20,000 nt of DNA from Elsinoe ampelina (lineage: Eukaryota). The stretch spans positions 985,424 to 1,005,423 of the forward strand of contig ML992512.1 in the NCBI GenBank assembly GCA_010093995.1, written 5' to 3'. Positions 1 through 20,000 of this stretch are shown in pieces. The notes under the pieces are model-generated. The model was not told the origin of the DNA, ran no database searches, and worked only from the letters and a program-made list of their open reading frames with translations. A program made the position numbers and the translations under genes. Within the stretch, counting starts at the first letter, position 1. Each line of letters starts with the position of its first letter.

Positions 1-1145
1 TCGGAGGTCCCCTCATTGGTGGAGCTTTCGCCGCTGGCGACGGCAGCAACTGGCCTTGGATATTTTGGATCAATCTCCCTTTCATAGCAATCGGGGGCGG
101 CCTGATGATTGCCTTCTTGCAGCTCAACAACCTTCCTGGATCGCTGGCTGCCAAGCTTCGCCGGGTCGACTACATGGGCATGGTCCTTTTCATTGGCTCT
201 ACCACTGGGTTATTGATCCCTTTGACCTGGGGCGGTGTCATGTACTCGTGGTCGTCCTGGCGCACGCTGGTGCCTCTACTGGTATCTGCTGCTGGTCTGG
301 TAGCCTTTGTCGTGTGGGAGGAGCGTTTCGCGGTAGAGCCACTTATCCCCTTCCGTATCACCAAGAGCTGGACAGCCGCGGCCACCTATATCACTACCTT
401 CCTCCACGGTATGGTCCTCTGGTGTCTTCTCTACTACGGGCCCCTCTACTTTGAAGCAGTCAAGGGCTACAGTCCTCTCATCTCCGGTATTGCCCTCTTC
501 CCATCGACCTTCACTGTCGCCCCAGCAAGCGTAGTAGTCGGCATCCTTGTCACCAAGACTGGTAAATACCGATGGTCACTTTACATTGGCTGGACTCTCG
601 CCACGCTTGGCTTTGGCCTTCAGTACCTCATGACGCACACCATTCCTACTGTCGGATGGGTATTCTTCCTCATCATCACCGGCCTCGGCACGGGTCTGCT
701 CTTCCCCGGTCTCGCTTTCAGCGTTCAAGCAGGTGCCGCAGAGGAGGATGCTGCCTCGGCCGTCGCTCTCTTCACCTTCATGCGCACTTTCGGTCAAGCA
801 ATCGGTGTCGCGGTGGGTGGTGTCGTCTTCCAGAACGCCATCAGGAAGCAGATTGCTTCTCGACCTCTCATCGCCATGAACGCTGCGCAATGGGCGGCCG
901 ACTCCAGTGCGCTGGTGCAAACAATCCATGGCATGCCTGAGGGACAGATCAAGATGGATCTGATCGAGAGCTATGCCGATGCGCTCAAGGTGGTCTGGGC
1001 TGTCTGCTGCGGCTTTGCTGGTCTGGCTCTTCTGCTTACCTTCTTGATCAAGGAATTCAGCTTGGATCGCCAACTGGGAAGCAAGGAGCAATTTGTGGAT
1101 AGCAGGAGAACTAGCTCCGAGGAGGCTGGTGCTGAGAAGGCGTGA
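1..1145 (+). CDS. MFS drug:H+ antiporter (DHA2/14-TM type), 5'-partial
   Basis: The frame of ORF 105..1145 is open back to base 3 and reads GGPLIGGAF...WPWIFWINLP (DHA2 motif), then VDYMG, many hydrophobic helices, and the C-terminal R.FGQAIGVAVGGVVFQN. Stop TGA at 1143-1145. Confidence 0.93.
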   Translation, partial: GGPLIGGAFAAGDGSNWPWIFWINLPFIAIGGGLMIAFLQLNNLPGSLAAKLRRVDYMGMVLFIGSTTGLLIPLTWGGVMYSWSSWRTLVPLLVSAAGLVAFVVWEERFAVEPLIPFRITKSWTAAATYITTFLHGMVLWCLLYYGPLYFEAVKGYSPLISGIALFPSTFTVAPASVVVGILVTKTGKYRWSLYIGWTLATLGFGLQYLMTHTIPTVGWVFFLIITGLGTGLLFPGLAFSVQAGAAEEDAASAVALFTFMRTFGQAIGVAVGGVVFQNAIRKQIASRPLIAMNAAQWAADSSALVQTIHGMPEGQIKMDLIESYADALKVVWAVCCGFAGLALLLTFLIKEFSLDRQLGSKEQFVDSRRTSSEEAGAEKA

Positions 1146-1357
1146 GAGCAGGATGGGTGTCGAGAAGTCTGTATCATGATACTTTATGATAAACGAAAGA
1201 GCGTGGAGTTTGGCAATGTTTTCGATATAGACAAGGGTCAGGATGATAGATCATAATTAGACGAGTAGCTGTAATCTAATTCCACTTATTTCTAGAAAGA
1301 TCTTCATGTCCTCGTTCAACTGCAATAGTCGATTTGTGTTCACATTACTGGTCATGT

Positions 1358-2188
1358 CTACGTTACTATGAGTTCTGCGGAAGCGTCATCGACTAATTGC
1401 AGTCCGTGACCATGCTCGTTCATCACTCGAACGGCCTCCTGCGTTAGCTGGTAACTCCAGTAATAATTGGAGAAGTCGTTCGCGCTCTTGACGTGGGTCG
1501 AACTGGAATCGGGTGCCGCTGCTCGCGTGTTTCGCACGACTTGTGCTACCCTCTCCGACCTCAGCTCATTGAAGACCTGAAGTCGAGCATGCACCTCGTC
1601 AGACTTGGCACCTTTCAGGACAACTCGCAGTGCTTCGGCATCCTCCAGTGCTTGACATGCTCCCTGTCCTTGGTCTACAGTCTGTCAGTTCTCGTGATCG
1701 TTCGACGCTGATGACCACGCTCACGTGGTCCCATCGCATGACCTGCGTCACCGATGAGAGCAAAGTTGTCCTTCACCAGGGAGTCGAGTGGATCTCGATC
1801 CCTCAGCTGCCTGCCATCCGCCATTGCGAGAGCCTTGAGGACGCTTGGGTGGAAGTCCTTGAACGTCTCGAGAATCTCCTCGACTGAAGCTTTCTCATCC
1901 CACTGCATACGTCGTTCGCTACTATCTGGAAAGATACCGACAAAGTACCTTCTCAGCCTCGACGTAACGAGCTTTGTGCTTGTCAAAGCCAGCGCGAGCG
2001 AAGCTCGACCTGAGTAATCTACTGGCATTGACCGAGAACGTTACGGCAGCGCCGACTTTTTTGTGCACAGTAGATGCTCCAAGAACAACCACATCATGGT
2101 CCTCTCTGAGCAGCAATGCTGTAGCTATGCCTGCAATACCGGCACCGCACACGATCACTCTAAGTCGGGATGTGATAGCTTCTACCAT
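1358..2188 (-). pseudogene. FAD-dependent monooxygenase (salicylate hydroxylase-like), internally deleted
   Basis: The pieces 2188-1949 (VIVCGAGIAG Rossmann motif), 1902-1725 (LIGDAGHAMGP) and 1674-1358 (HQGQGACQALEDA) join through GT-AG gaps at 1948-1903 and 1724-1675 into only ~245 aa. The central part with the DG motif is absent, and the conserved acidic residue after beta-strand 2 is Gly (VVVLGAS). Confidence 0.8.
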
Positions 2189-2540
2189 GTTTGACAGCAG
2201 CCTAGCGAGAGGCCCTGGGGGAAGAAAAGAATCGCATGTTGCTGGACTATTGAAGTACCGCCCTGTCCGAACGTCGCAGGTAAGAGTGCGGGTAGACTGA
2301 CAGTTCACATCACATGAGTTGCGGAAGTCGTGCATCGGTTGTGCAAGTGTATACTTCTGGTTCTCGAAATGTTATCTGTCCCGTCACTGCGATGCAAATG
2401 ATTAAAATCTCCACTGTATTTTGCTCATCCCTCCGGCGCCAAAGCTGGTATCAAGTGAATGTCGTGGCCCATTTCCCGCGAGCAAAAATTAACGTCATCT
2501 CTGGCATGAAATTATTTACAATGGTCATAATCGTGCTAAT

Positions 2541-3822
2541 CTAGACATAGATGTAGCACAGAGGTCGTTTGGTCGTCGACATGACGTCTCCGATGGTGAC
2601 AGTCTTCGCGAGGACACCGAGATCGATCGCATCGGTCAAGGCCGTGTCGCGGCTGGGAGGACTGTTGAAGAGTGTGAGGGTTCCGGCAAGTGCTCTCTCA
2701 CGGGTAGCAAGGTCCTGATTCTGCCAGATCCACCAAAGGCGATCGATTTGACCATGATGGAGGAAGAAGTATGGGTCGCCAGGGGAGGCAAAGAGATCTC
2801 CCCCTGGATCGCCACCAACAAGGAAGTGACCAGCAGTATGCACACCGATAAATCCGTTGGGGAAGTCACCTTGCATGGTGTTCTGGAAGGACAAGATGTC
2901 CTGGTTGTTATTGATAAGAGTGGTCGAGTTTTGATCGTAGAGGTTCGAGGTCGAAGCCGCCGAGCTGATGTCACGGCGGATGCAGCGAGGATTGTATCCA
3001 AGTCCATCAGGAGACGGGTTGGCGGGAGCGTATGGAAGGACAGGCGAGAGAGGCCCAAGGTTGACCTGGTAGTCCTTGAACGGACCGGAGGTGATGCAGT
3101 CACCACCGTTTCCAGGTGGAAGAGTCAGGGGAGGCGTAGCTGCGGCAAAGATCACGGCAGGAGGGTGCTCACGGTAAGCACCATCGCCGCTCATTGAGGT
3201 GTCGGAGCCATCGAAGACTGGTGCTGCGCGAGGGTTGGACGCTAGCTTTCCCCAGTTGAGGTATGGTTGATATCCGGTGTAGCCGCACTCATTTCGCAAA
3301 GCTTGCTCGTAGGCCCATGTGAAATATCTGTGCCATGACAAGAAGTTTCCAGTGCCGTGGATGGACAAGGTCTGTTGAATGTGCTTCAACATGTTAGTCT
3401 TGATGATTTGGGATGAGATACTGAGGTCCACATACAATAGCGACAAAATCATCGTATCGGTTCTTCGCTCCTGGGGCGGCGGAACCGACTTGAGAAGGTT
3501 TCGATTGCAAACACTGGACAGCAGAGATGTAGGCCTTCTTCTCCTTTGCGCTAAGTGTGTTCCTACTGAGGTCAGTATCGTTCACGGAGGCATCATGAGT
3601 GAGGGCTTACCATTCTCTCCGCTGAGCGGCTGTGAGTATGTTGCATGTTCCTGGTGCTCCCGAGGTAAATTGAGAGACAGCAAGCTTGATCAGCCCCAAA
3701 GCTGCAAGCTTGTCTGTACCGGCGGTGCTGTCTGGTGTCCATGCTGGCGCAGGTGCACGCTTGACAGGGCCAGCACTAACGACCGTAGCCGCAGCAGCGG
3801 ACAGAAGCCAAAGAAGATGCAT
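2541..3822 (-). CDS. Secreted tyrosinase / catechol-oxidase-like di-copper protein (~393 aa)
   Basis: Exons 3822-3611, 3562-3436 and 3383-2541; intron donors GTAAGC and GTATGT with branch sites. Signal peptide, RREW, RYDDFV, CuA His residues (HIQQTLSIH...FLSWHR) and CuB (HTAGH...DPYFFLHHGQIDRLW). Confidence 0.93.
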
Positions 3823-5318
3823 AATGTAATGCCCACGTGGATGACTGCCTGAAAGAAGAGTCGAAGATCAGCGATTATCCACTACTGTGCAGTATACACG
3901 TGGTGCACGTTGGAGTAATGGGCTGCATGAAACCGTCATGGGAACCTGCATATATAGATACAAATAGAGGTCTCATTAGAGCCATTGGATAGCGCAATAT
4001 GATCAACGCGCAGTACCCACCGGAATCCTGACTATGCAGCCACAAGGGTGACAGAACATGTCTAGCTCACCTGTCATGCCAGGAAAACCAAGTGCCGAAC
4101 GAGTGGGAGGCGGCGCGGGCTTGCGGGAAATGTCCAGGCTCGTCCCGTTATGGAAAAAGACTTTTGGGGCCCTGCAATTTAAGTTGACCTACGCCCGGGA
4201 TTGCCCCACTGCGGCGTGGTGAAGATGCAGGGCAAGCCCCAGAGGGGGGGCTGACTTTCCAGAAGGCTTCTCTAGACCAAGTTGGGGCGAGACTGGATCT
4301 CCTTGACGACGAGTCGAAGGATTCATGCAGCTGACGGTGAGCAGCTTCGAAGAGATGTGCTTGAGACACCCAATTCCCGCAGCGTAACAGCTTGGATGAA
4401 ATGATAGTCTCAGACGACACAAGCGAGGCGTCCGGAAATGAAGCCTTTAGGGCTCGCTGGGCACCTGATCCACGATAAAGTGAAGATTGATCTCCCTGCC
4501 AATGACGATCAATGGAGCCACGTGCGAGGGCCTGAGAAACATCACGCCGCACGCGAGGTGCGACGACGGCATAGAATTGCCGTTGGTTTTTGCTTTTGTG
4601 TCGACCGCGATAGGGCACGGCCGGGAACCGGTCACAGGCAGCGTGGCTGTCCGTTGGAGAGAAAAAGAACAGACGCCCCCCTGCATGGACGAAGCTAAGT
4701 AGACGACACTATTGCCTTCTAGGCGGGATAGGAAACCGCACGGAAGTCATCGTATCCGAAGTCATGGCTCTCGCACGTAGTCCTGGAGAGGGAAGAGCTA
4801 CGCAGCTATTGGAACAAAAGACGAAGGAGGCAAAGACATAGAGGTTACCGTTGGGTGGCACTCTGTGCTGATCAGAGCCGAAACAGACGTTTGCGCTCTG
4901 GTGGCAGGATTCAAGCTCGGCGCCGCTGATATACCTGGTCCTTTCCATATCCTGGTGTACCCGTCATGCATATCCTCGGTTGTTTAGGCAGATTTGCAGA
5001 GGTCCTGAATATGGACAACGGCTGATCAGCATGTCGCGTTGGTGGACTCGCAATCGACTTGTGTGCCCTGGGTCGGTGAAGACTCCTCTGACAATCTCAG
5101 CATCCCTGCCGCCGGCAAGAGGGGGCCGTGTGATTTCTTCGGCTCGCATCAGGCACTAACTCGGACGGGATCGTGCAAGTGTGCATCCCATGGTGAGCTA
5201 TTGGAATGGTACGGGCTCTTCCTGTAACAGATGTGCAATTATACATGCATACACATAAAGATCCCTGATCGCCGGTCAAGATCTGTCCGCGCACCTTTGC
5301 TGCATCGTTGCGTACATC

Positions 5319-12699: not shown

Positions 12700-14424
12700 A
12701 TGACTGGTGTTACCAAACAGAGAGCCTCAGAAGAGGTGACCCAAGTCAACACGCTTGGTCACCTACGCCTTCGCCATGAGCTTACCAATGAGATCATCCT
12801 CATTCCTACACCATCCAATGATCCCAATGATCCTCTCAACTGGTAAACAAGCTCTTGTCGATAGTGAAGTCAGCTTACTCTAGCAGGTCGAAGCGGCACC
12901 GCGTTTACATTGCGTTACTGGTCTCTCTGGCAATGTTTTTCTGCAACTTTCTTGCCGCCGGACCGTCTGTTGCCATCGTCAACATTGTTATCGATTACTT
13001 CGGCACGCCGCCAATGACCCCCGGGTTTCCGGCCGCTATCGCAAAGACCGCGTACCTCTTCACTACTACTGCACTGCTGCAAGGCATGGGGAATCTCATC
13101 TGGATGCCATTCATCATCAAATATGGCCGTCGACCCATGTATATCATATCATTCACCGGTTACGCCGTGTGTGCCCTTTGGTCTGGATTGTCCAAGAGTT
13201 ACGAGAGCGAGCTGGCGTCTAGGATCATTTTGGGATTCTTTGCAGGATCAGCTGAATGCATTGCACCTCTCACCATCTCCGACATCTTTTTCTTACATGA
13301 GCGTGGATTCTACATGGGGTAAGTCTTTACGGTATTACACAACATGCACGGGTGCTTTCATGCAGAGAATGTACAAATCGCTAACACCGAAAAGGATGTA
13401 CACAGTGGCACTTTCACTTGGCGTCTCTGGAGGTGTTATCATCTCTGGTTTGATCACAATCAATCTGAGCTGGCGGTACATCTATTACGTGGCCGCGGCT
13501 CTCATTGGTGCTTTGACCATTCTTGTCTTTTTCACCCTTCCAGAGACGGACTTCAAACGCGATCCGACCACGAGGACTATCCGTAACATCGAGTCAAAGG
13601 AGGTCGAAATAACAGAGCATGTAGAGGGACTGCCTGATACCAACCCCAGGCAATCTTTTGTGCAGCGTCTGCGCGTATTCCATGGACCCTTCACCAATGA
13701 GTCACTTTGGCGCATCTTCTACCGACCTATCGTCTTACTGGCGCTCCCACCTGTCCTGTGGGCAACCCTGATTATGTCTGTCACAATTGGATTTTTGGTC
13801 GCTATCTCGTCCAATTTTGCGTCCGCTTTCGCGCAAGTGTATGGGTTTAAGCCGTATCAATCCGGTCTCTGCTTCATCTCAGGATTCATCGGCACTCTGT
13901 TCGGTATCTTCGGCGGTGGTCAAGTCTCGGACTGGGTGGCCGATTACTTTACTCGCCGCAACGGAGGGATTCGCGAGCCGGAAATGCGTCTGCCAGCCAT
14001 GACACTGGGCTTGATCTGCACCCCTGTAGGTCTGGTGCTGTACGGTGTGGGCATTGAGAAACAGCTTCACTGGATTGTCGCAACCCTCGGTCTTGGGTTT
14101 CTCAGCTTTGCTATTGCGCAAACAACGAACGTCTCCCTGGTCTACATTATCGACTCGTACAGACCGATCGCTGGTGAAACTGTCGTTACTCAATTGGCTT
14201 TCAAGTCTGCATTCGGATTCCTTCTTTCCTTCTACACGAACCCCTGGATCGAAAAGGCTGGGTATGCCAATGCCTTTGGTGCCATGGCCGGAATTGCAGG
14301 GGGGGTGATCTTGCTTTGGGTACCCTTCTATATCTGGGGAAGGCAAATCCGTGTGGCAACACTCAAATGGAGGGTCATGACAAACCTGGCAGGATGGGAT
14401 GAGGATAGAGAGGTCGGCGAGTAG
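12700..14424 (+). CDS. MFS transporter (DHA1/HOL1-like, ~534 aa)
   Basis: Exons 12700-12842, 12887-13318 and 13395-14424. Motifs LIPTPSNDPNDPLNW, KYGRRP, ISDIFFLHERG, LPET and GIREPEMRL. Confidence 0.92.
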
Positions 14425-15078
14425 GGGAGGCTTGCGGGCCCTTGATATATCATCTAGCCAACGCGACGAACAGGGATACACGGAGTTCAATGGACCAACA
14501 GCCCAGTACTTGCTACAGATATTGGATTCAGCGCTTTACTTGCTCGTGAAAACCTCTTTCATGTAGATCGTTGGTGATGTATGATAAAGCAAGCAGCCGG
14601 ACGCTCTCATCACACCTGAACGAGGGGATCGCGTGAGCGCATGCTCGACGAGGCTTAACGTGAGAGGACCATTGTAACCCTGGGGTGTCGCACGCATCTG
14701 CACGAAATGTGGTCCCGGTCAATGCCACGCGGTTCTCATGGGAGGCGTTTTTAGACTTCTGCATGCCTTGCGAGCGTTTGTTGAACCATGTTTTGACATC
14801 GGGCCCACATGTTCACCCCGCGTCCCAAACAATCAATTTCCATCTCCCTCTTCCTCTCCAACGACCACGACTTCGGATTGCATACTCTGTGGGCACCAAC
14901 AATCCGCTCTCCACCCACAAGCACACTTCTTGACCTCATCTTCGCGATTCTTGGGGGACCACATGCCCGGGCGGGCTCTCCACCTGTGGAGGTAAGATGG
15001 GATTGAACATCCGGGTCCGCGAGCAAGGAGAAGAGCAGGAAGAACAAGGACAACTGAGATTGTAGCAAGCTGGAAATC

Positions 15079-15900
15079 ATGGAAGCATTGGATAACGCCG
15101 TCGCCATCAACAGTCGGGACACCGATCTTCAGGCCGTCAACTTGCAGTCGTTGACAGGCAAAATCGCAGTCATCAGCGGGTCAAGCTCTGGCATTGGCAA
15201 AGCGATTGCCATCGAACTTGCCAGTCGCGGCGCGTCTACAGTCATCAACTATCCGTTCGAAACCCTCAAGGATGAAGCGGCGGCGGTATTACCTCGTCTA
15301 GCGGTCCCTGGGATAGCTGTCTGCGCCGACATATCAACCATTGACGGTCCAAGAATCCTGATCGAGGCGGCCGTGAAAGCGTTTGGGAAAGTCGACATTA
15401 TCGTCAACAACGCAGCGATTGCTGTCAACAAACCTTTCGAAGAACAAACCCTTGCCGACTGGGATCTACTTGTCAACCTCAATGGGCGGGGGACATTCCT
15501 GCTCACCCAACACGCACTTCCTCATATGCCTCGCCCCGGTGGTCGAATAGTCAACATATGCAGCGCTTCGTCTCGTGGGCCGCCGCCATGGCAGACTATC
15601 TACGCCGGGACAAAGGGTATGGTCGACAGCTTCACCAAAGTGTGGGCCAAAGAGCTTGCGGAGAAGTACGGCTGCACAGTCAACAGTGTGAGTCCGGGAC
15701 CGACCAGGACAGAGGGGTTTGCAAATGCGGGCGAAGAGGTCATGAAGTTTCTACAACCCACCATTGACGCCACACCGGCAGCGAGACGGATGGGGGAAAC
15801 TACGGAAATAGCGTATGCGGTGGCTATGCTGTGCGAGGAGCGAGCGAGGTGGCTCAATGGACTGCATCTGCATGCTAATGGAGGTCTTCTCATTGATTGA
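15079..15900 (+). CDS. Classical short-chain dehydrogenase/reductase
   Basis: Intronless 273 aa ORF with SGSSSGIG, VNNAA, catalytic YAGTK, VNSVSPGPT and a C-terminal NGG. Confidence 0.93.
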   Translation: MEALDNAVAINSRDTDLQAVNLQSLTGKIAVISGSSSGIGKAIAIELASRGASTVINYPFETLKDEAAAVLPRLAVPGIAVCADISTIDGPRILIEAAVKAFGKVDIIVNNAAIAVNKPFEEQTLADWDLLVNLNGRGTFLLTQHALPHMPRPGGRIVNICSASSRGPPPWQTIYAGTKGMVDSFTKVWAKELAEKYGCTVNSVSPGPTRTEGFANAGEEVMKFLQPTIDATPAARRMGETTEIAYAVAMLCEERARWLNGLHLHANGGLLID

Positions 15901-16251
15901 TAGACAAAATAAAGAATCGTATGCCTTGCATCTTGTGTCTTATCGTCACGCTGATGCTGTAGGGAATGTTACCTGAACTGCTGAGGTGGGCCGCGGAGGA
16001 CCACTAAGGGCCAGCTGGGCCGATCATACTGTACTGCTGCATTGCTACCAAGATATGTCATTTGCCGGATATGAATGTTCGTGTATCGTCCGATCCACTG
16101 TGCCCAACAACCCCGACACTCCCACTCGGCTCTGACCCTCTTCCTGTTCCATCTCCACATACTTAGCGACCAGGGCTTGCCACAGATATCGACCGGGTCC
16201 CTAACCACAACCCAATCTCACCATCGCTCGCGCTTGTTCTTGAGCTTTACC

Positions 16252-16549
16252 ATGTTGCATCTCGTGCTTCTCTCTCTGGCCGTGCTGGCCTTCGCTCTTG
16301 CGGTCAGTTGCATGATGAGCAGAGCAAGTCTTGACTGACCATTCGTAGTATGTGTACCGTATCCTGGCGTCACCACTCCGACGACTGCCCGGCCCCTGGT
16401 ACTCTCACTTCACCCATCTCTGGCTGAAGTGCCATGTCGTCAAAGGCAGACGCCTTCACTATATCCGCGGTCTACACAAGCACTACGGGCCGATTGTCCG
16501 TGTCTCGCCTACCGGGATCGATGTGTCCTCAGGGTTAGGGTTAGGGTGA
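16252..16549 (+). pseudogene. Cytochrome P450, N-terminal fragment only
   Basis: Exon 1 16252-16302 (membrane anchor), intron 16303-16348, then exon 2 with SPLRRLPGP...LHKHYGPIVRVSP. After ~77 codons the frame runs into telomeric repeats (SGLGLG*). No I-helix, EXXR or heme-Cys region is present in the window. Confidence 0.88.
16529..16546 (+). repeat. Interstitial telomeric tract TCAGGG(TTAGGG)2
   Basis: Read directly from the sequence. It coincides with the P450 breakpoint and with a compositional boundary. Confidence 0.8.
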
Positions 16550-16582
16550 AAAGTACATTCAGTGTGTAGCTACCCTGACATA

Positions 16583-17659
16583 CATGTCCAAATCGGTGGC
16601 AAACAGCAATCACGCAACGAAAACAAATCCTATCTAAACCAAATTTTTACTATATTAAATGTACCTCTTTTCTTATAGAACGTAGCAAAAATTATCTAAA
16701 TCTAATATTAATTGACTAAGATATTAGCGTTTCTAGTTAATACTATATCCTACCTAATTCTATACTCTTATATAAACTAGGTTCGTAGATAAGTAGCCTA
16801 TAAGCTAGTTCTACGTATAGTAAGATAAGGAATATTAAATTTCCTTAAACGCCGCTACTAATTTATACTTTAATAGTCTCTCTTAGCTAAGAATAAAAAG
16901 GTAAAAGCTATACTTTAAAAGGATATATTTATACTATTTCTTAGTCTCTACTATAGTAAGAGTTAAGTCCGGTGTAGCTCTAGTCTTTTCCCTTACTAGG
17001 GAGACTACTATAATATTATAGAAAGTTATTCCTATTAGTATATTAACTTTAATATCTATCTAGTAGTTAGAATCTTCTTCTCTTTTTAGTTTAAGTATAG
17101 TAGTTATTTAGGCAACGAAATTTATTACTTTAGCTAGTACTCTATAGATAAGATTATACTTAACTCTTATCTATTAAGAATAAGTACTATAGATATCTTT
17201 ATAGCTAAAAGTATATATTTTACTATAGTACTAGTAAAGCTCTTACTAGCGCTCTACTAGTAAGAGAAGTTAAATCGAGAGTGCTAACGTAATATTCTAA
17301 TTAGTAAGGAGTAGGTCTTAGCTTATTCGAAGTATAGAGAGCTAATAGAAGTCTAAATAGATACTATTTTTTTATTTTATAGTCTCTTACTCTTTTAATA
17401 GGTTTTAATATATCTTTATTAATCTTATGTTATATATAGCTTAGATCTAGGTCTAGTAGTGTTATTTAGCCTATTTAGCGTCTAATAGATCTATCGAGAG
17501 GTCTATAAAGAGGAGAAAGAAGATTCTAAAGGTTAAGATATTCTCTAGTATACCTATATAAATATAAAAGGTTTAAATTGCTTACGGCGCGCTATTAGTC
17601 GTTTCGACCTTATTCTAGGCTAGAATAGGGCCTACTCTAGCTATAGTATCTGGACACTA
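16583..17659. mobile_element. RIP-degraded repeat, probably a TA-targeting DNA transposon remnant
   Basis: Very AT-rich (sampled 60-mers 18-33% GC) and TpA-saturated. CpA/TpG are nearly absent internally while CpG survives, and there are no ORFs. Imperfect inverted ends CA-TGTCCAAAT ... ATCTGGACACTA are each flanked by TA. No transposase could be read. Confidence 0.65.
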
Positions 17660-18856
17660 TATGTCTTAGGAGGAAGGGTACATTCCAATGGTTTTACTAG
17701 AGCAGGGTTAGGGTATTTTCCTAGATTCTAATGGGATTCCTAACCTCCATTCTTTAGGACTTCCTAAGATTTTTTCCCTCTGAATTTTTCAGAGATTACT
17801 TATATCACCTAGGTCCTCCATGATACTCAGTATCATCTAGAATCATCGAGTATTACTCCCAGAATCTGGGTCATGGTATGCTGGGACTGTCCTGAAAATC
17901 TTTTGAAGTTCCTGAGAAAATATGGGGTAGGGGTCTTGGCAGCTTTGCTCCTGACAGTCAGGAACTCCAGAACATCCCCACAAATTCAGAGAGGCCCAGG
18001 CAGACCAGTAGACAGATATAGAATACATATTGAAGCAGAATGAATTTCCTAGCAAACAGGAGGTCCAAGAATCATAGATGACTCCATGGTACTCAGATTG
18101 TATGTATGGATATCGCTCCTAGAGTTATCAGGGAAATCCTAGAGCCTATGATCCTCGATTGAATAATAGACAACCAGGATCTTCAGTAGAAATACCTACC
18201 TCCCCTCCTGTCTTTGTCTTTTCTAACTACCTCTCAGCATTCCCCCATCATTTTCCGGGGTCCAGGGTTCTCAGGACAGCCAGATTGATATTCAATAGCT
18301 TTTCATGATACCAGATTCAGATCTGGTAAGTAGATCATATCGGCAGGAGTCAGAATGGAATTCTTGAGGGCTCATGGTTCCGCTGGAGTACAGAGCCATA
18401 ATCATGAGTCCATCCACCCAAAGGTTTGGGCTATTGTTCCTATTGTATTACCTATTGTTATATTGCTCCAGGCAACAATAAACTTTCATAAGGAATTGTC
18501 AGCAAGCATTCCTGGTTTGGCCCCTGGCAGCCAGGCGTTGGTTAGTACATCCTGAGTCTCCAGGGATTGTGACCTGGGCCTTTCACATGCTATATTCACA
18601 TGCTCCTTTGTTATTATATCACCCTTTGTTTCATATGCCCAGCCACCTAGCATGACTCACAGATCTCATATATCTCTTTCATTCCCTCCAGCTTTCTTCC
18701 TTCCTCTTCTCATCACCTTCATCACAGTAAGTTTGCCCCATCACAGCCAGATCCTCATCCAGTCCCTTCAAGAGAGTCAAAGCAGCCAGAGATGCCACCA
18801 CAGAGATCAAACAGCTTCCAATCAGCTCCAGAAAGAACCAGCTTTACAGCTCACCT

Positions 18857-18895
18857 ACAGCCTTCACAGCCTTCATAGCTTTCACAGAGCTTTTC
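18857..18895 (+). repeat. Degenerate 9-bp tandem repeat (ACAGCCTTC)
   Basis: ACAGCCTTC ACAGCCTTC ATAGCTTTC ACAGAGCTTTTC, with further CAGCY copies scattered over about 18780-18980. Confidence 0.65.
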
Positions 18896-19163
18896 ACTAG
18901 CAAGAGATGGATATACCTGGCAGCCCTTTACACCAACAAGCCCAGCAGCCTTCACAGCAATACATACAGCTCCATTCAGCCTATAGATCTTATCTCTGCT
19001 GCTTTGACTCTACTGAGAGGCCTTGAATGAGGACCTTTGGTGAATGTGAGCCTTCCTGAGAACCCTGACTGACCATGACTTCCAGTTCTGACCTCCTGGC
19101 CCTCCTGCAATTTTGCCTTCCTTCCTGAACAACTTCCTGAGCCCAGCGCTCCCAGCAACCATC

Positions 19164-20000
19164 ATGGCTCCCAGGGCCTCGCATACTAGGACTCCTGTGA
19201 CCTTCCTGGCTACCACTAGAGACAGGGTTGCCAACCTGAATACCCTGAGTAAGCCCTGAGCCCCTGATACACATCCTGATTTCACTGACACTTCCAGGCT
19301 ATGCCCAGGTTCCTATGACCCTTCCCTTTGCCCAGCAGGTCCAGGCCAACCTCCAGGGACTCAATGTGGCCCAGCGCAATTCCCTGGACGCCCAGGTCAA
19401 ACCCCTGGTCAACGCTGATCTCCAGGTCTTCGCCAGGACCGGTCCTGAGTTCCAGCTCAACCAGCCCATCAACCTGAGGACTCCTGGAACGACCATGAAC
19501 CTTTCTGGATCCAACACCAACTACCTGGTTTCTCTGCTCGTCCATGGCGCTTCTGGGCATACTGTCCACCCAGCTGGTCAGGAGTGCACTTCCTGTGCTC
19601 AGGGGAACGGCAAATACAACTCCTGTGTCACCATGACCACTCCTGACGGCACTGTGCTCCTGAGGGGCTCCTGTACCAACTGTGGCTTCCAGAACAATCA
19701 CCATGGCTGCAGCTTGTCCAGTACGTGTTCCTGAGTTTCCTGATCGATCCTGACTGACATGAGTCCCAGACTACCAGAGAGCTTCCAGACGCCCCTCTAC
19801 TGACCCCACCCCTGTGCGTCCTAGGGCTTCTGGACCCATGAGACGCCTCAGAGGTCTCCTGACCGACGATGAGGCTACCAGGGGCTTCCTGATTGAGCTT
19901 CCTGACGACTCTGACCCTTCTGAGAACCAGCGCGCCCTGGACAATTTCCTGGCTCTCCTGGACGATATCAAGGCTCAGGTGACCACCCTGAGGGACAGGG
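19164..20000 (+). CDS. Three-exon gene for a six-cysteine putative zinc-binding protein (DUF3716-like), 3'-partial
   Basis: ATG at 19164 in a good context (ACCATCATGG). Exons 19164-19248, 19298-19720 and 19770->20000; two 49-nt introns (donors GTAAGC and GTACGT, CTGAC branch, CCAG acceptor) keep one open frame. Motif C-x2-C-x9-C-x15-C-x2-C-x8-C at 19585-19710. The DUF3716 label is from memory of the motif, not from a search. Confidence 0.8.

Follow-up and report, generated by a model that had tools for sequence, protein, structure and literature searches.

Several kinds of repeated DNA are associated with chromosome ends. The Y' elements of yeast and the TLH/RecQ cassettes of fungi are multi-copy, gene-carrying blocks located by telomeres, with short telomere tracts towards the inside, and they spread by end recombination. 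MoTeR elements of Magnaporthe are bounded by telomere repeats at chromosome ends and encode a reverse transcriptase (RT) without spliced genes. Starships are defined by a DUF3435 captain as the first gene at the 5' end. Gene-carrying Terminons are known in rotifers. The available sections of two papers describe telomere-linked retroelements in Zymoseptoria tritici and Ascochyta lentis (Coprina-1_Alen) whose centromere-facing 3' tip carries 1-3 TTAGGG units; these Dothideomycete retroelements form truncated and tandem copies, and one of them replaced part of a subtelomeric gene cluster (PMC4522978, PMC13159263). RecQ genes are also described in Z. tritici subtelomeres in the available part of the first paper (PMC4522978). 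Another element of Z. tritici, REP9 or Styx, is presented in the accessible parts of its two reports as a 7.9-kb class II element related to IS3EU with four genes, of which the first two are DUF3716 genes and the last encodes an rve-type integrase; it has 36-43-bp inverted ends and 6-bp duplications, and its copies are partly mutated by repeat-induced point mutation (RIP) (PMC8232023, PMC10853768). The locus analysed here lies in a 20,000-nucleotide stretch of Elsinoe ampelina contig ML992512.1 (positions 985,424 to 1,005,423, assembly GCA_010093995.1), referred to as the window. In this window, a cytochrome P450 gene is cut off by telomere-type repeats, which are followed by a RIP-mutated repeat and a multi-copy block carrying a DUF3716 gene.

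The preferred reading, to which somewhat less than an even chance is given, is that the P450 gene was broken and that a repeat of subtelomere type, tipped with telomere units, sealed the break. The gene is present as a 5' fragment on the forward strand (exon 1, 16252-16302; intron, 16303-16348; exon 2, 16349-16531), which comprises 78 codons and is then broken. The frame 16349-16531 matches residues 259-319 of the E. fawcettii protein P0043 at 46 of 61 residues (75% identity), and the fragment shares 14 of 16 residues with the E. australis P450 P0045. Homology to both proteins stops after RVSPTGIDVSS, at base 16531. Past this point, both relatives go on with PE(L/I)HKQVH and about 400 more residues, whereas the window enters telomere repeats. 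Among the best 120 of the 644 proteins found at E ≤ 1e-30, no P450 remainder was annotated in the host genome and no match lay on the host contig, though the proteins of this contig are in the collection. The only row above 65% identity among these 120 came from E. australis.

The tract GGGTTAGGGTTAGGGT (16532..16547, forward strand) consists of 2.7 telomere-type units. Its perfect 15-mer, GGGTTAGGGTTAGGG, occupies 16532-16546, and the run continues to T16547. A 15-mer of this type is expected by chance 0.03 times per window, and at least two telomere-motif matches at up to two mismatches were found in 0 of 200 shuffles. The G-strand of the tract runs outward from the P450 gene, in the orientation of a right-hand chromosome end. 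The true junction lies within 16529-16532, and the CA at 16530-16531 can be assigned to either side. The two public sequencing runs with the block, X1 and X2, come from the same sample and the same study, and one contig in each spans 14000-17679 with 0 differences at single-copy depth (230 and 225, respectively). Because these short-read contigs cross the junction at single-copy depth without a mismatch, the join between the P450 gene and the repeat is real and not a misassembly. This read support is not independent of the assembly, as the sample is probably the assembly source. A scan of the junction for bacterial promoters and terminators, which is not applicable to a fungus, gave nothing. 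Inside the window, no other copy of the block or of the tip was found, nor was an inverted copy of the tip.

The tract opens a 58-nt stub (16532-16589, forward strand) composed of the telomere units, a 27-nt spacer (16548-16574) and a 15-nt segment, X' (16575-16589), which represents the diverged first bases of the multi-copy block. By eye, X' differs from 17650-17665 by two indels and two transitions. The first 15 nt of X, the left edge of the block, stand in this diverged form before the insert R, and X restarts at its first base after R. R (16590..17649, no strand assigned) is an AT-rich repeat of 1.06 kb with a GC content of 0.283. Its TpA/ApT ratio is 1.77 against 0.55 in host DNA, and its (CpA+TpG)/(ApC+GpT) ratio is 0.17 against 1.30. 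Its CpG is undepleted, with 22 observed and 21.2 expected (observed/expected ratio, o/e, 1.04). Relatives of R are present on three other contigs at 90-95% over 16635-16812, and six of the eight differences listed in 16665-16753 are C>T or G>A. R is a RIP-mutated repeat. Its derivation from a RIP-mutated copy of the block was considered and rejected; the two share no 26-mers in purine/pyrimidine space besides a local palindrome, and alignment of R with 17649-20000 in that space scored 40 and 34 against 38 ± 4 for shuffles.

A second, RIP-mutated copy of the tip opens with the same CAGGGTTAGGGTTAGGGTGAAAAG next to other DNA on its left. Beyond 16812, a contig with R-like sequence passes into a 30-letter string that equals 16530-16559 at 30 of 30 positions when C>T and G>A changes are allowed. 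A loose end before 17649 carries a RIP-mutated spacer, the same over its first 21 positions with the same changes allowed, joined directly to X. The second copy has the same 2.7 telomere units and spacer, with no R between tip and X. Since the tip recurs in a RIP-mutated copy with another left flank, it belongs to a repeat.

The block X-E (17650..20000, forward strand) is multi-copy, CpG-poor and C-rich (C 684 against G 483), has a GC content of 0.50 and lacks a RIP signature, with a (CpA+TpG)/(ApC+GpT) ratio of 1.59. Exact contigs of X-E have depths of 553-711 in run X1 and 560-793 in run X2, which correspond to about 2.4-3.5 copies. The X core at its left edge (17650..17820, forward strand) is the most repeated piece, with about 25-40 copies, and holds the second CAGGGTTAGGGT, a 12-nt repeat at 17703-17714 that recurs about 100 nt further in once R is removed. 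Both single-copy contigs stop at 17679, that is, 29 letters past 17650; the repeat start at 17650 assumes 31-letter words, as suggested by overlaps of about 30 letters between neighbouring contigs. Over 17618-17818, the depths add up to 8477 / 9870, which exceeds the single-copy value about 37-44-fold, or about 27-37-fold when taken by single positions. By bin from the tip side, the summed depth is 8477, 1079, 3286, 1436, 2000, 755, 2144, 759 and 553, the last value applying from 19226 on, and X is about ten times more abundant than E. The overall inward fall would be expected of an element that has its 3' end on the left and many copies truncated at the 5' end. Three or more distinct flanks adjoin 17649-17653 from the left in the run contigs. 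Furthermore, a run X2 contig (depth 393) passes from 18245 through TA to 17653, which is a head-to-tail joint of a unit of about 593 bp elsewhere in the genome. Both ends of this unit (17653-18245) are far more abundant than its middle. A further joint, from 16752 to 17653, was left unused, as it has just 20 letters on one side, in AT-rich DNA. In the piece of highest depth, run contigs end in a loxP-like string at 17705 and 17810; these loose ends are presumably the Cre-lox adaptor of a mate-pair library and not genome sequence.

Variants between copies are nearly all C>T or G>A, mainly in TpG/CpA context, and RIP has therefore hit some copies of X-E. The initial annotation had described a gene-truncating telomeric terminus, a nested RIP-mutated insert and a block that had escaped RIP. 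The cut of the P450 gene at 16531, followed by GGGTTAGGGTTAGGGT and covered by run contigs, bears out the terminus, and R bears out the insert; the escape from RIP holds for the present copy and fails for those with C>T and G>A changes. The structured terminal region proposed there comes down to a small number of short repeats besides the second CAGGGTTAGGGT at 17703. It had also been asked whether copies begin at the same telomere-bearing base in unrelated flanks, which is true of the one RIP-mutated copy (30 of 30 positions) and not of the exact unit, which starts at 17650. The block is not syntenic single-copy host DNA, the outcome that would have spoken against a distinct element. X-E is present at 2.4-3.5 times and its first 160 bp or so at about 25-40 times single-copy depth, and the P450 continues in two named relatives at the point where the block starts.

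The CpG loss noticed at first sight was also substantiated. X-E has 30 CpG observed against 140.5 expected (o/e 0.21), compared with an o/e of 0.87 in host DNA, and its non-coding part has 8 observed against 75.4 expected (o/e 0.11). This loss does not come from the local RIP regime, because R kept its CpGs. DNA of metagenome relatives of the DUF3716 gene is also nearly CpG-free (o/e 0.02 in L001, positions 1-2033, and 0.13 in L002, positions 1-4528), which indicates that the CpG loss travels with this DUF3716 branch. The loss may have been inherited from a long life as CpG-methylated repeat DNA or from another host. Dnmt5 is present in the Dothideomycete L. maculans, as stated in the available part of the source (PMC12543289). 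X-E is further marked by the motif TCCTGA, with 17 copies over 17890..19905 on the forward strand and three others on the minus strand. In 1000 dinucleotide-preserving shuffles, the expected number was 1.61 ± 1.24, and 14 copies was the most that a hexamer reached. The motif is densest in the two introns of the DUF3716 gene (4 in 98 nt) and is also found in all three reading frames and in the leader. Host DNA has 5 copies in 16.5 kb. L002 has 4 on the sense strand of a 0.52-kb gene remnant and no asymmetry elsewhere, and L001 has none. TCCTGA and CpG loss next to the CpG-keeping, RIP-mutated R suggest that two mutational or selective regimes act on repeats in one genome.

The DUF3716 gene (exons 19164-19248, 19298-19720 and 19770-19999, forward strand; PF12511, E 2.9e-12) is the first gene of the block, lies on the inward strand and is open at the window end. 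Its spliced product is letter for letter the NCBI-source protein P0001 (246 aa), which confirms both introns. P0001 stops at the last full codon, and base 20000 is a G with which no stop codon is possible; therefore, the contig probably ends, or meets a gap, at base 20000 inside the repeat, and P0001 is most simply a 3'-partial gene. The near-invariant conserved cysteines are C125, C128, C138, C154, C157 and C166. The initial annotation had called an intact spliced Cys6 gene. The gene is spliced, it is cut by the window end, and DUF3716 and not Zn2Cys6 was the only match above the Pfam cut-off. The sample also contains a diverged paralogue, seen on a 145-nt contig at depth 200; its 7 base differences fall in 6 codons, five of them changed synonymously and the sixth giving T142R. 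As five of the six codon differences are synonymous, the domain is under purifying selection, and the gene is predicted to be functional and old. Among 1.84 billion representatives, 42 matching proteins were found at E ≤ 0.001, of which the closest is 45% identical, while a word-index protein search with exon 2 at near lengths brought up 9 candidates, none of which scored. Of 20 matches scanned, 15 contained DUF3716 alone and 5 were repetitive proteins matched by chance; none of the 20 had a mobility domain. The 10 nearest clusters comprise environmental records only, with 17 members listed and none NCBI-sourced, and the ESM Atlas gave DUF3716 clusters only, from Ascomycota.

The DUF3716 core (P0001 residues 75-169, 19435-19719) is predicted to fold with high confidence (pLDDT 94, pTM 0.85). 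The domain alone had no match among solved structures in Foldseek at E ≤ 0.001 and in VIA-align at Z ≥ 2 (0 of 48,161 chains), which is no proof of a new fold. With the whole P0001 model, only the C-terminal helix was matched (Z ≤ 3.9). A metagenome scan with a 6-sequence alignment gave 132 pattern matches and two confirmed loci, L001 and L002, both of them short; in viral contigs, 12 patterns matched and 0 were confirmed. By eye, the second intron is at the same place and in the same phase as in the decayed relative of L002. In L002, a Ty3-type pol (RVT_1, RNase H, rve) lies on the opposite strand, 0.8 kb from the decayed DUF3716 gene. This pol is itself CpG-poor, and the DUF3716 gene of L002 is interrupted in frame by two stop codons of the C>T or G>A kind.

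Searches for a mobilizing gene were consistently empty. None of the 21 open reading frames (ORFs) of at least 50 aa on both strands of 17813-19999 gave a hit at E ≤ 0.1, and of five block ORFs in the Pfam scan only the DUF3716 exon matched. No RT domain, such as that of Penelope-like elements (PLEs; DKN, RT1-7 and thumb), was seen in the ORFs of this size, and the element may extend past 20000. A tRNA scan gave nothing. No transposase, RT, captain or helicase was found within the window, and no rve integrase in the 3.5 kb to the right of the break. The absence of a captain, a RecQ gene and a DDE transposase from the window, remarked on in the initial annotation, was thus upheld by the domain scans, while nothing was obtained in support of the horizontal acquisition it proposed. 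In the literature, nothing was found on Elsinoe combined with transposable elements, telomeres and RIP, and among the matches listed, no title or abstract start described a transposon with telomere-repeat ends in fungal genomes.

Under the preferred reading of a sealed break, the chromosome would have broken after codon 78 of the P450 gene, with loss of the distal part. The broken end would then have been joined to the tip of an element, primed from a telomeric G-strand end in the manner of endonuclease-lacking, Coprina-type PLEs, or alternatively by copying from another chromosome end that held the same tip. On the minus strand, this tip would read spacer-(CCCTAA)2.7-3', and it would have been retained as the stub at 16532-16589. 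Distal to the stub, the old RIP-mutated R would be followed by the young, approximately three-copy X-E, whose putatively functional, intron-bearing DUF3716 gene would be read towards the presumed chromosome end, and the assembly contig would stop inside this block. The locus would be, or would once have been, a chromosome end, and the tip and X-E would belong to one family. The reading is favoured because the telomere units are perfect and their G-strand points outward, because the tip recurs as a unit, and because no P450 remainder is annotated although the P450 continues in two relatives. It is also favoured by the depth gradient together with the head-to-tail joint 18245-TA-17653, and by the precedents from other Dothideomycetes, in which 1-3 TTAGGG units cap a 3' end turned to the centromere, as far as these are described in the sections cited above. 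A more far-reaching proposal, which is considered improbable, is that the tip and X-E belong to a new kind of telomere-tipped mobile element of Dothideomycetes, which attaches to broken or uncapped ends by its (CCCTAA)n tip, as endonuclease-lacking PLEs do. It would differ from these in being nearly devoid of CpG, in its dense strand-specific TCCTGA motif and in an opposite-strand DUF3716 zinc-domain gene that has introns and is under selection. Such an element would be a fungal counterpart of Terminons that heals breaks and builds subtelomeres.

Several observations weigh against a sealed chromosome end. In exact form, 16532-17649 is unique, and the exactly repeated unit opens at 17650; the young copies therefore lack this tip or have a different one. 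No telomere units are present at the stub-R or R-X junctions, and the depth gradient is non-monotonic. No RT or mobility domain was detected in 16529-20000, and 2.3 kb without an RT beside the tip compares with a 3' region of about 0.4 kb in Coprina-1_Alen, as given in the available text on that element. No hammerhead or other Rfam family matched at E ≤ 1 in 16000-20000; the hammerhead motif is reported for PLEs, and its universality is not established. The reads behind this evidence are all from a single sample, which is probably the assembled strain. In addition, the sole published transposon link of DUF3716 in the accessible parts of the Styx and REP9 reports is to a DNA transposon (PMC8232023, PMC10853768).

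This last point leads to the main rival, an internal nest of transposons, which is regarded as possible and rather doubtful. The P450 gene would have received a DNA transposon of the Styx/REP9 kind with telomere-like subterminal repeats, R would have inserted into this transposon, and the rest of the P450 would lie beyond the unassembled right end or would have decayed. In agreement with this, DUF3716 genes stand at the left end of REP9/Styx as far as its reports are available, and the first gene here is a DUF3716 gene on the inward strand. The block is multi-copy with a sharp left boundary at 17650 and several flanks, CAGGGTTAGGGT recurs about 100 nt inside when R is removed, like subterminal binding-site repeats, and contigs often break at transposons. 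However, the window has no transposase, a perfect tract of 2.7 telomere units would be an unusual transposon tip, and the sharp repeat boundary is at 17650 and not at the tip. The closest relatives of P0001 are at most 45% identical, standalone proteins, none of the 20 scanned having a mobility domain, and no P450 remainder was annotated among the best 120 of 644 matches. Less probable still is a capture of subtelomeric DNA without transposition, in which a broken end, with or without units added by telomerase, invaded an interstitial TTAGGG tract in the subtelomere of another chromosome and was extended by break-induced replication, so that the block is a Y'-like cassette. A donor-type arrangement does exist in the RIP-mutated tract copy, which has other DNA on its left and X on its right. 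About three identical copies of more than 2.3 kb without a RIP signature would fit recent exchange among chromosome ends, as would the head-to-tail X joint and an X copy number near a plausible number of chromosome ends. In contrast, the uniqueness of 16532-17649 in exact form leaves no recent donor of the same sequence, R is heavily RIP-mutated and X-E is not, which is at odds with one recent copying event, and the window contains no helicase gene.

The remaining explanations are weaker. It is quite unlikely that X-E is the 3' part of a long terminal repeat (LTR) retrotransposon on the minus strand, with X as its LTR or part of it and the DUF3716 gene as an antisense accessory gene whose introns persist by lying on the other strand. 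This reading is suggested by L002, where the decayed DUF3716 gene, with its intron in the matching position, is separated by 0.8 kb from the end of an opposite-strand Ty3-type pol; such proximity was seen once and, in DNA rich in repeats, may be due to chance. The much greater abundance of X than of the inner part resembles solo LTRs, and a pyrimidine-rich run at 18196-18245 lies where the reverse complement of a polypurine tract could sit, but the boundaries at 17650 and 18245 are not TG...CA, and 2.35 kb hold no remnant of pol, gag or integrase. Very little weight is given to the idea that a Starship, or some other large cargo element of horizontal origin, begins here. The foreign composition of the block (CpG o/e 0.21 against 0.87 in the host) would be compatible with such an origin, as would the closest relatives of the gene, which are all environmental among the 17 listed members of the 10 nearest clusters. 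Conversely, no DUF3435 tyrosine recombinase is encoded by the first gene or elsewhere in the 3.5 kb next to the end, many partial and RIP-mutated copies in the genome point to long residence, and no donor was identified. A chimeric assembly of P450 and repeat is scarcely credible. The block is at a probable contig end and repeats attract misjoins, yet de Bruijn contigs from two runs of one sample cross 16529-17679 with 0 differences at single-copy depth.

The 16.5 kb to the left of the break are gene-dense fungal DNA with a GC content of 0.53 and a CpG o/e of 0.87, which ranges from 0.72 to 1.04 in one-kb windows (n=32) of host DNA. Pfam matches in this flank include transporters, a tyrosinase, an M28 peptidase, a pectate lyase, an FAD oxidase and a short-chain dehydrogenase. 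Genes of this accessory kind, such as transporters and P450s, often sit near chromosome ends, and their presence on the left lends weak support to a chromosome-end setting. The short-chain dehydrogenase gene (15079..15900, forward strand; adh_short_C2, E 1.2e-47) is the upstream neighbour of the P450. Its exact protein is present as an NCBI record from the host contig, and it matches the N-terminal half of P0043 at 209 of 241 residues (87% identity), so the dehydrogenase-P450 neighbourhood is common to the window and the E. fawcettii relative. P0043 (723 aa) is annotated as a dehydrogenase-P450 fusion. In the window, the two are separate genes 350 nt apart, each with its own start codon, so that a faulty gene model probably accounts for the fusion in P0043. 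At a distance of 330 nt from the junction, and about 40 nt ahead of the P450 start codon, there is a degenerate telomere-like motif of opposite orientation, CCCTAACCACAACCC (16199-16213, two mismatches, about 0.03 expected per window), which may be a promoter element or chance.

If the locus is terminal, it represents the loss of a secondary-metabolism-type gene to a break, caught in the act and capped by a telomere-associated repeat. In the available part of the A. lentis paper, the same process of breaking and capping is proposed to erase effector and toxin clusters (PMC13159263). If the ordinary explanation is true, the locus is a transposon nest at a contig end and of local interest only. 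In addition, DUF3716, a large uncharacterised family, is linked here to repeat or transposon DNA in a second and third setting besides Styx.

Compared with the described systems, the locus agrees with each only in part. Starships open with a captain, whereas DUF3716 is the first and only gene within 3.5 kb here. MoTeR elements encode an RT, which is missing here, and the present gene has two introns. Unlike Y' and TLH cassettes, the window has no RecQ-type helicase, and the gene carried is DUF3716. The likeness to Styx/REP9 is in the multi-copy state, in the partly RIP-mutated copies and in DUF3716 as the first gene at the left end, which is a feature of Styx and not general to IS3EU. In contrast to Styx, no rve integrase lies in the 3.5 kb; as the last gene of Styx, it would be expected beyond the window. 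The right end of the block, where a Styx-like element would bear its second inverted repeat, is likewise outside the window. The DUF3716 proteins of Styx are only distantly related to P0001, and the accessible parts of both Styx/REP9 papers make no mention of telomeres, nor does that of the Styx paper mention CpG. Compared with Coprina, the locus differs in having no RT within 2.3 kb of the tip and an intron-bearing DUF3716 gene on the opposite strand, and the boundary at which its young copies begin, 1.1 kb away from the tip, lacks telomere units. With these endonuclease-lacking PLEs, it has in common 2.7 outward telomere units, a truncated gene, a depth gradient and a head-to-tail joint.

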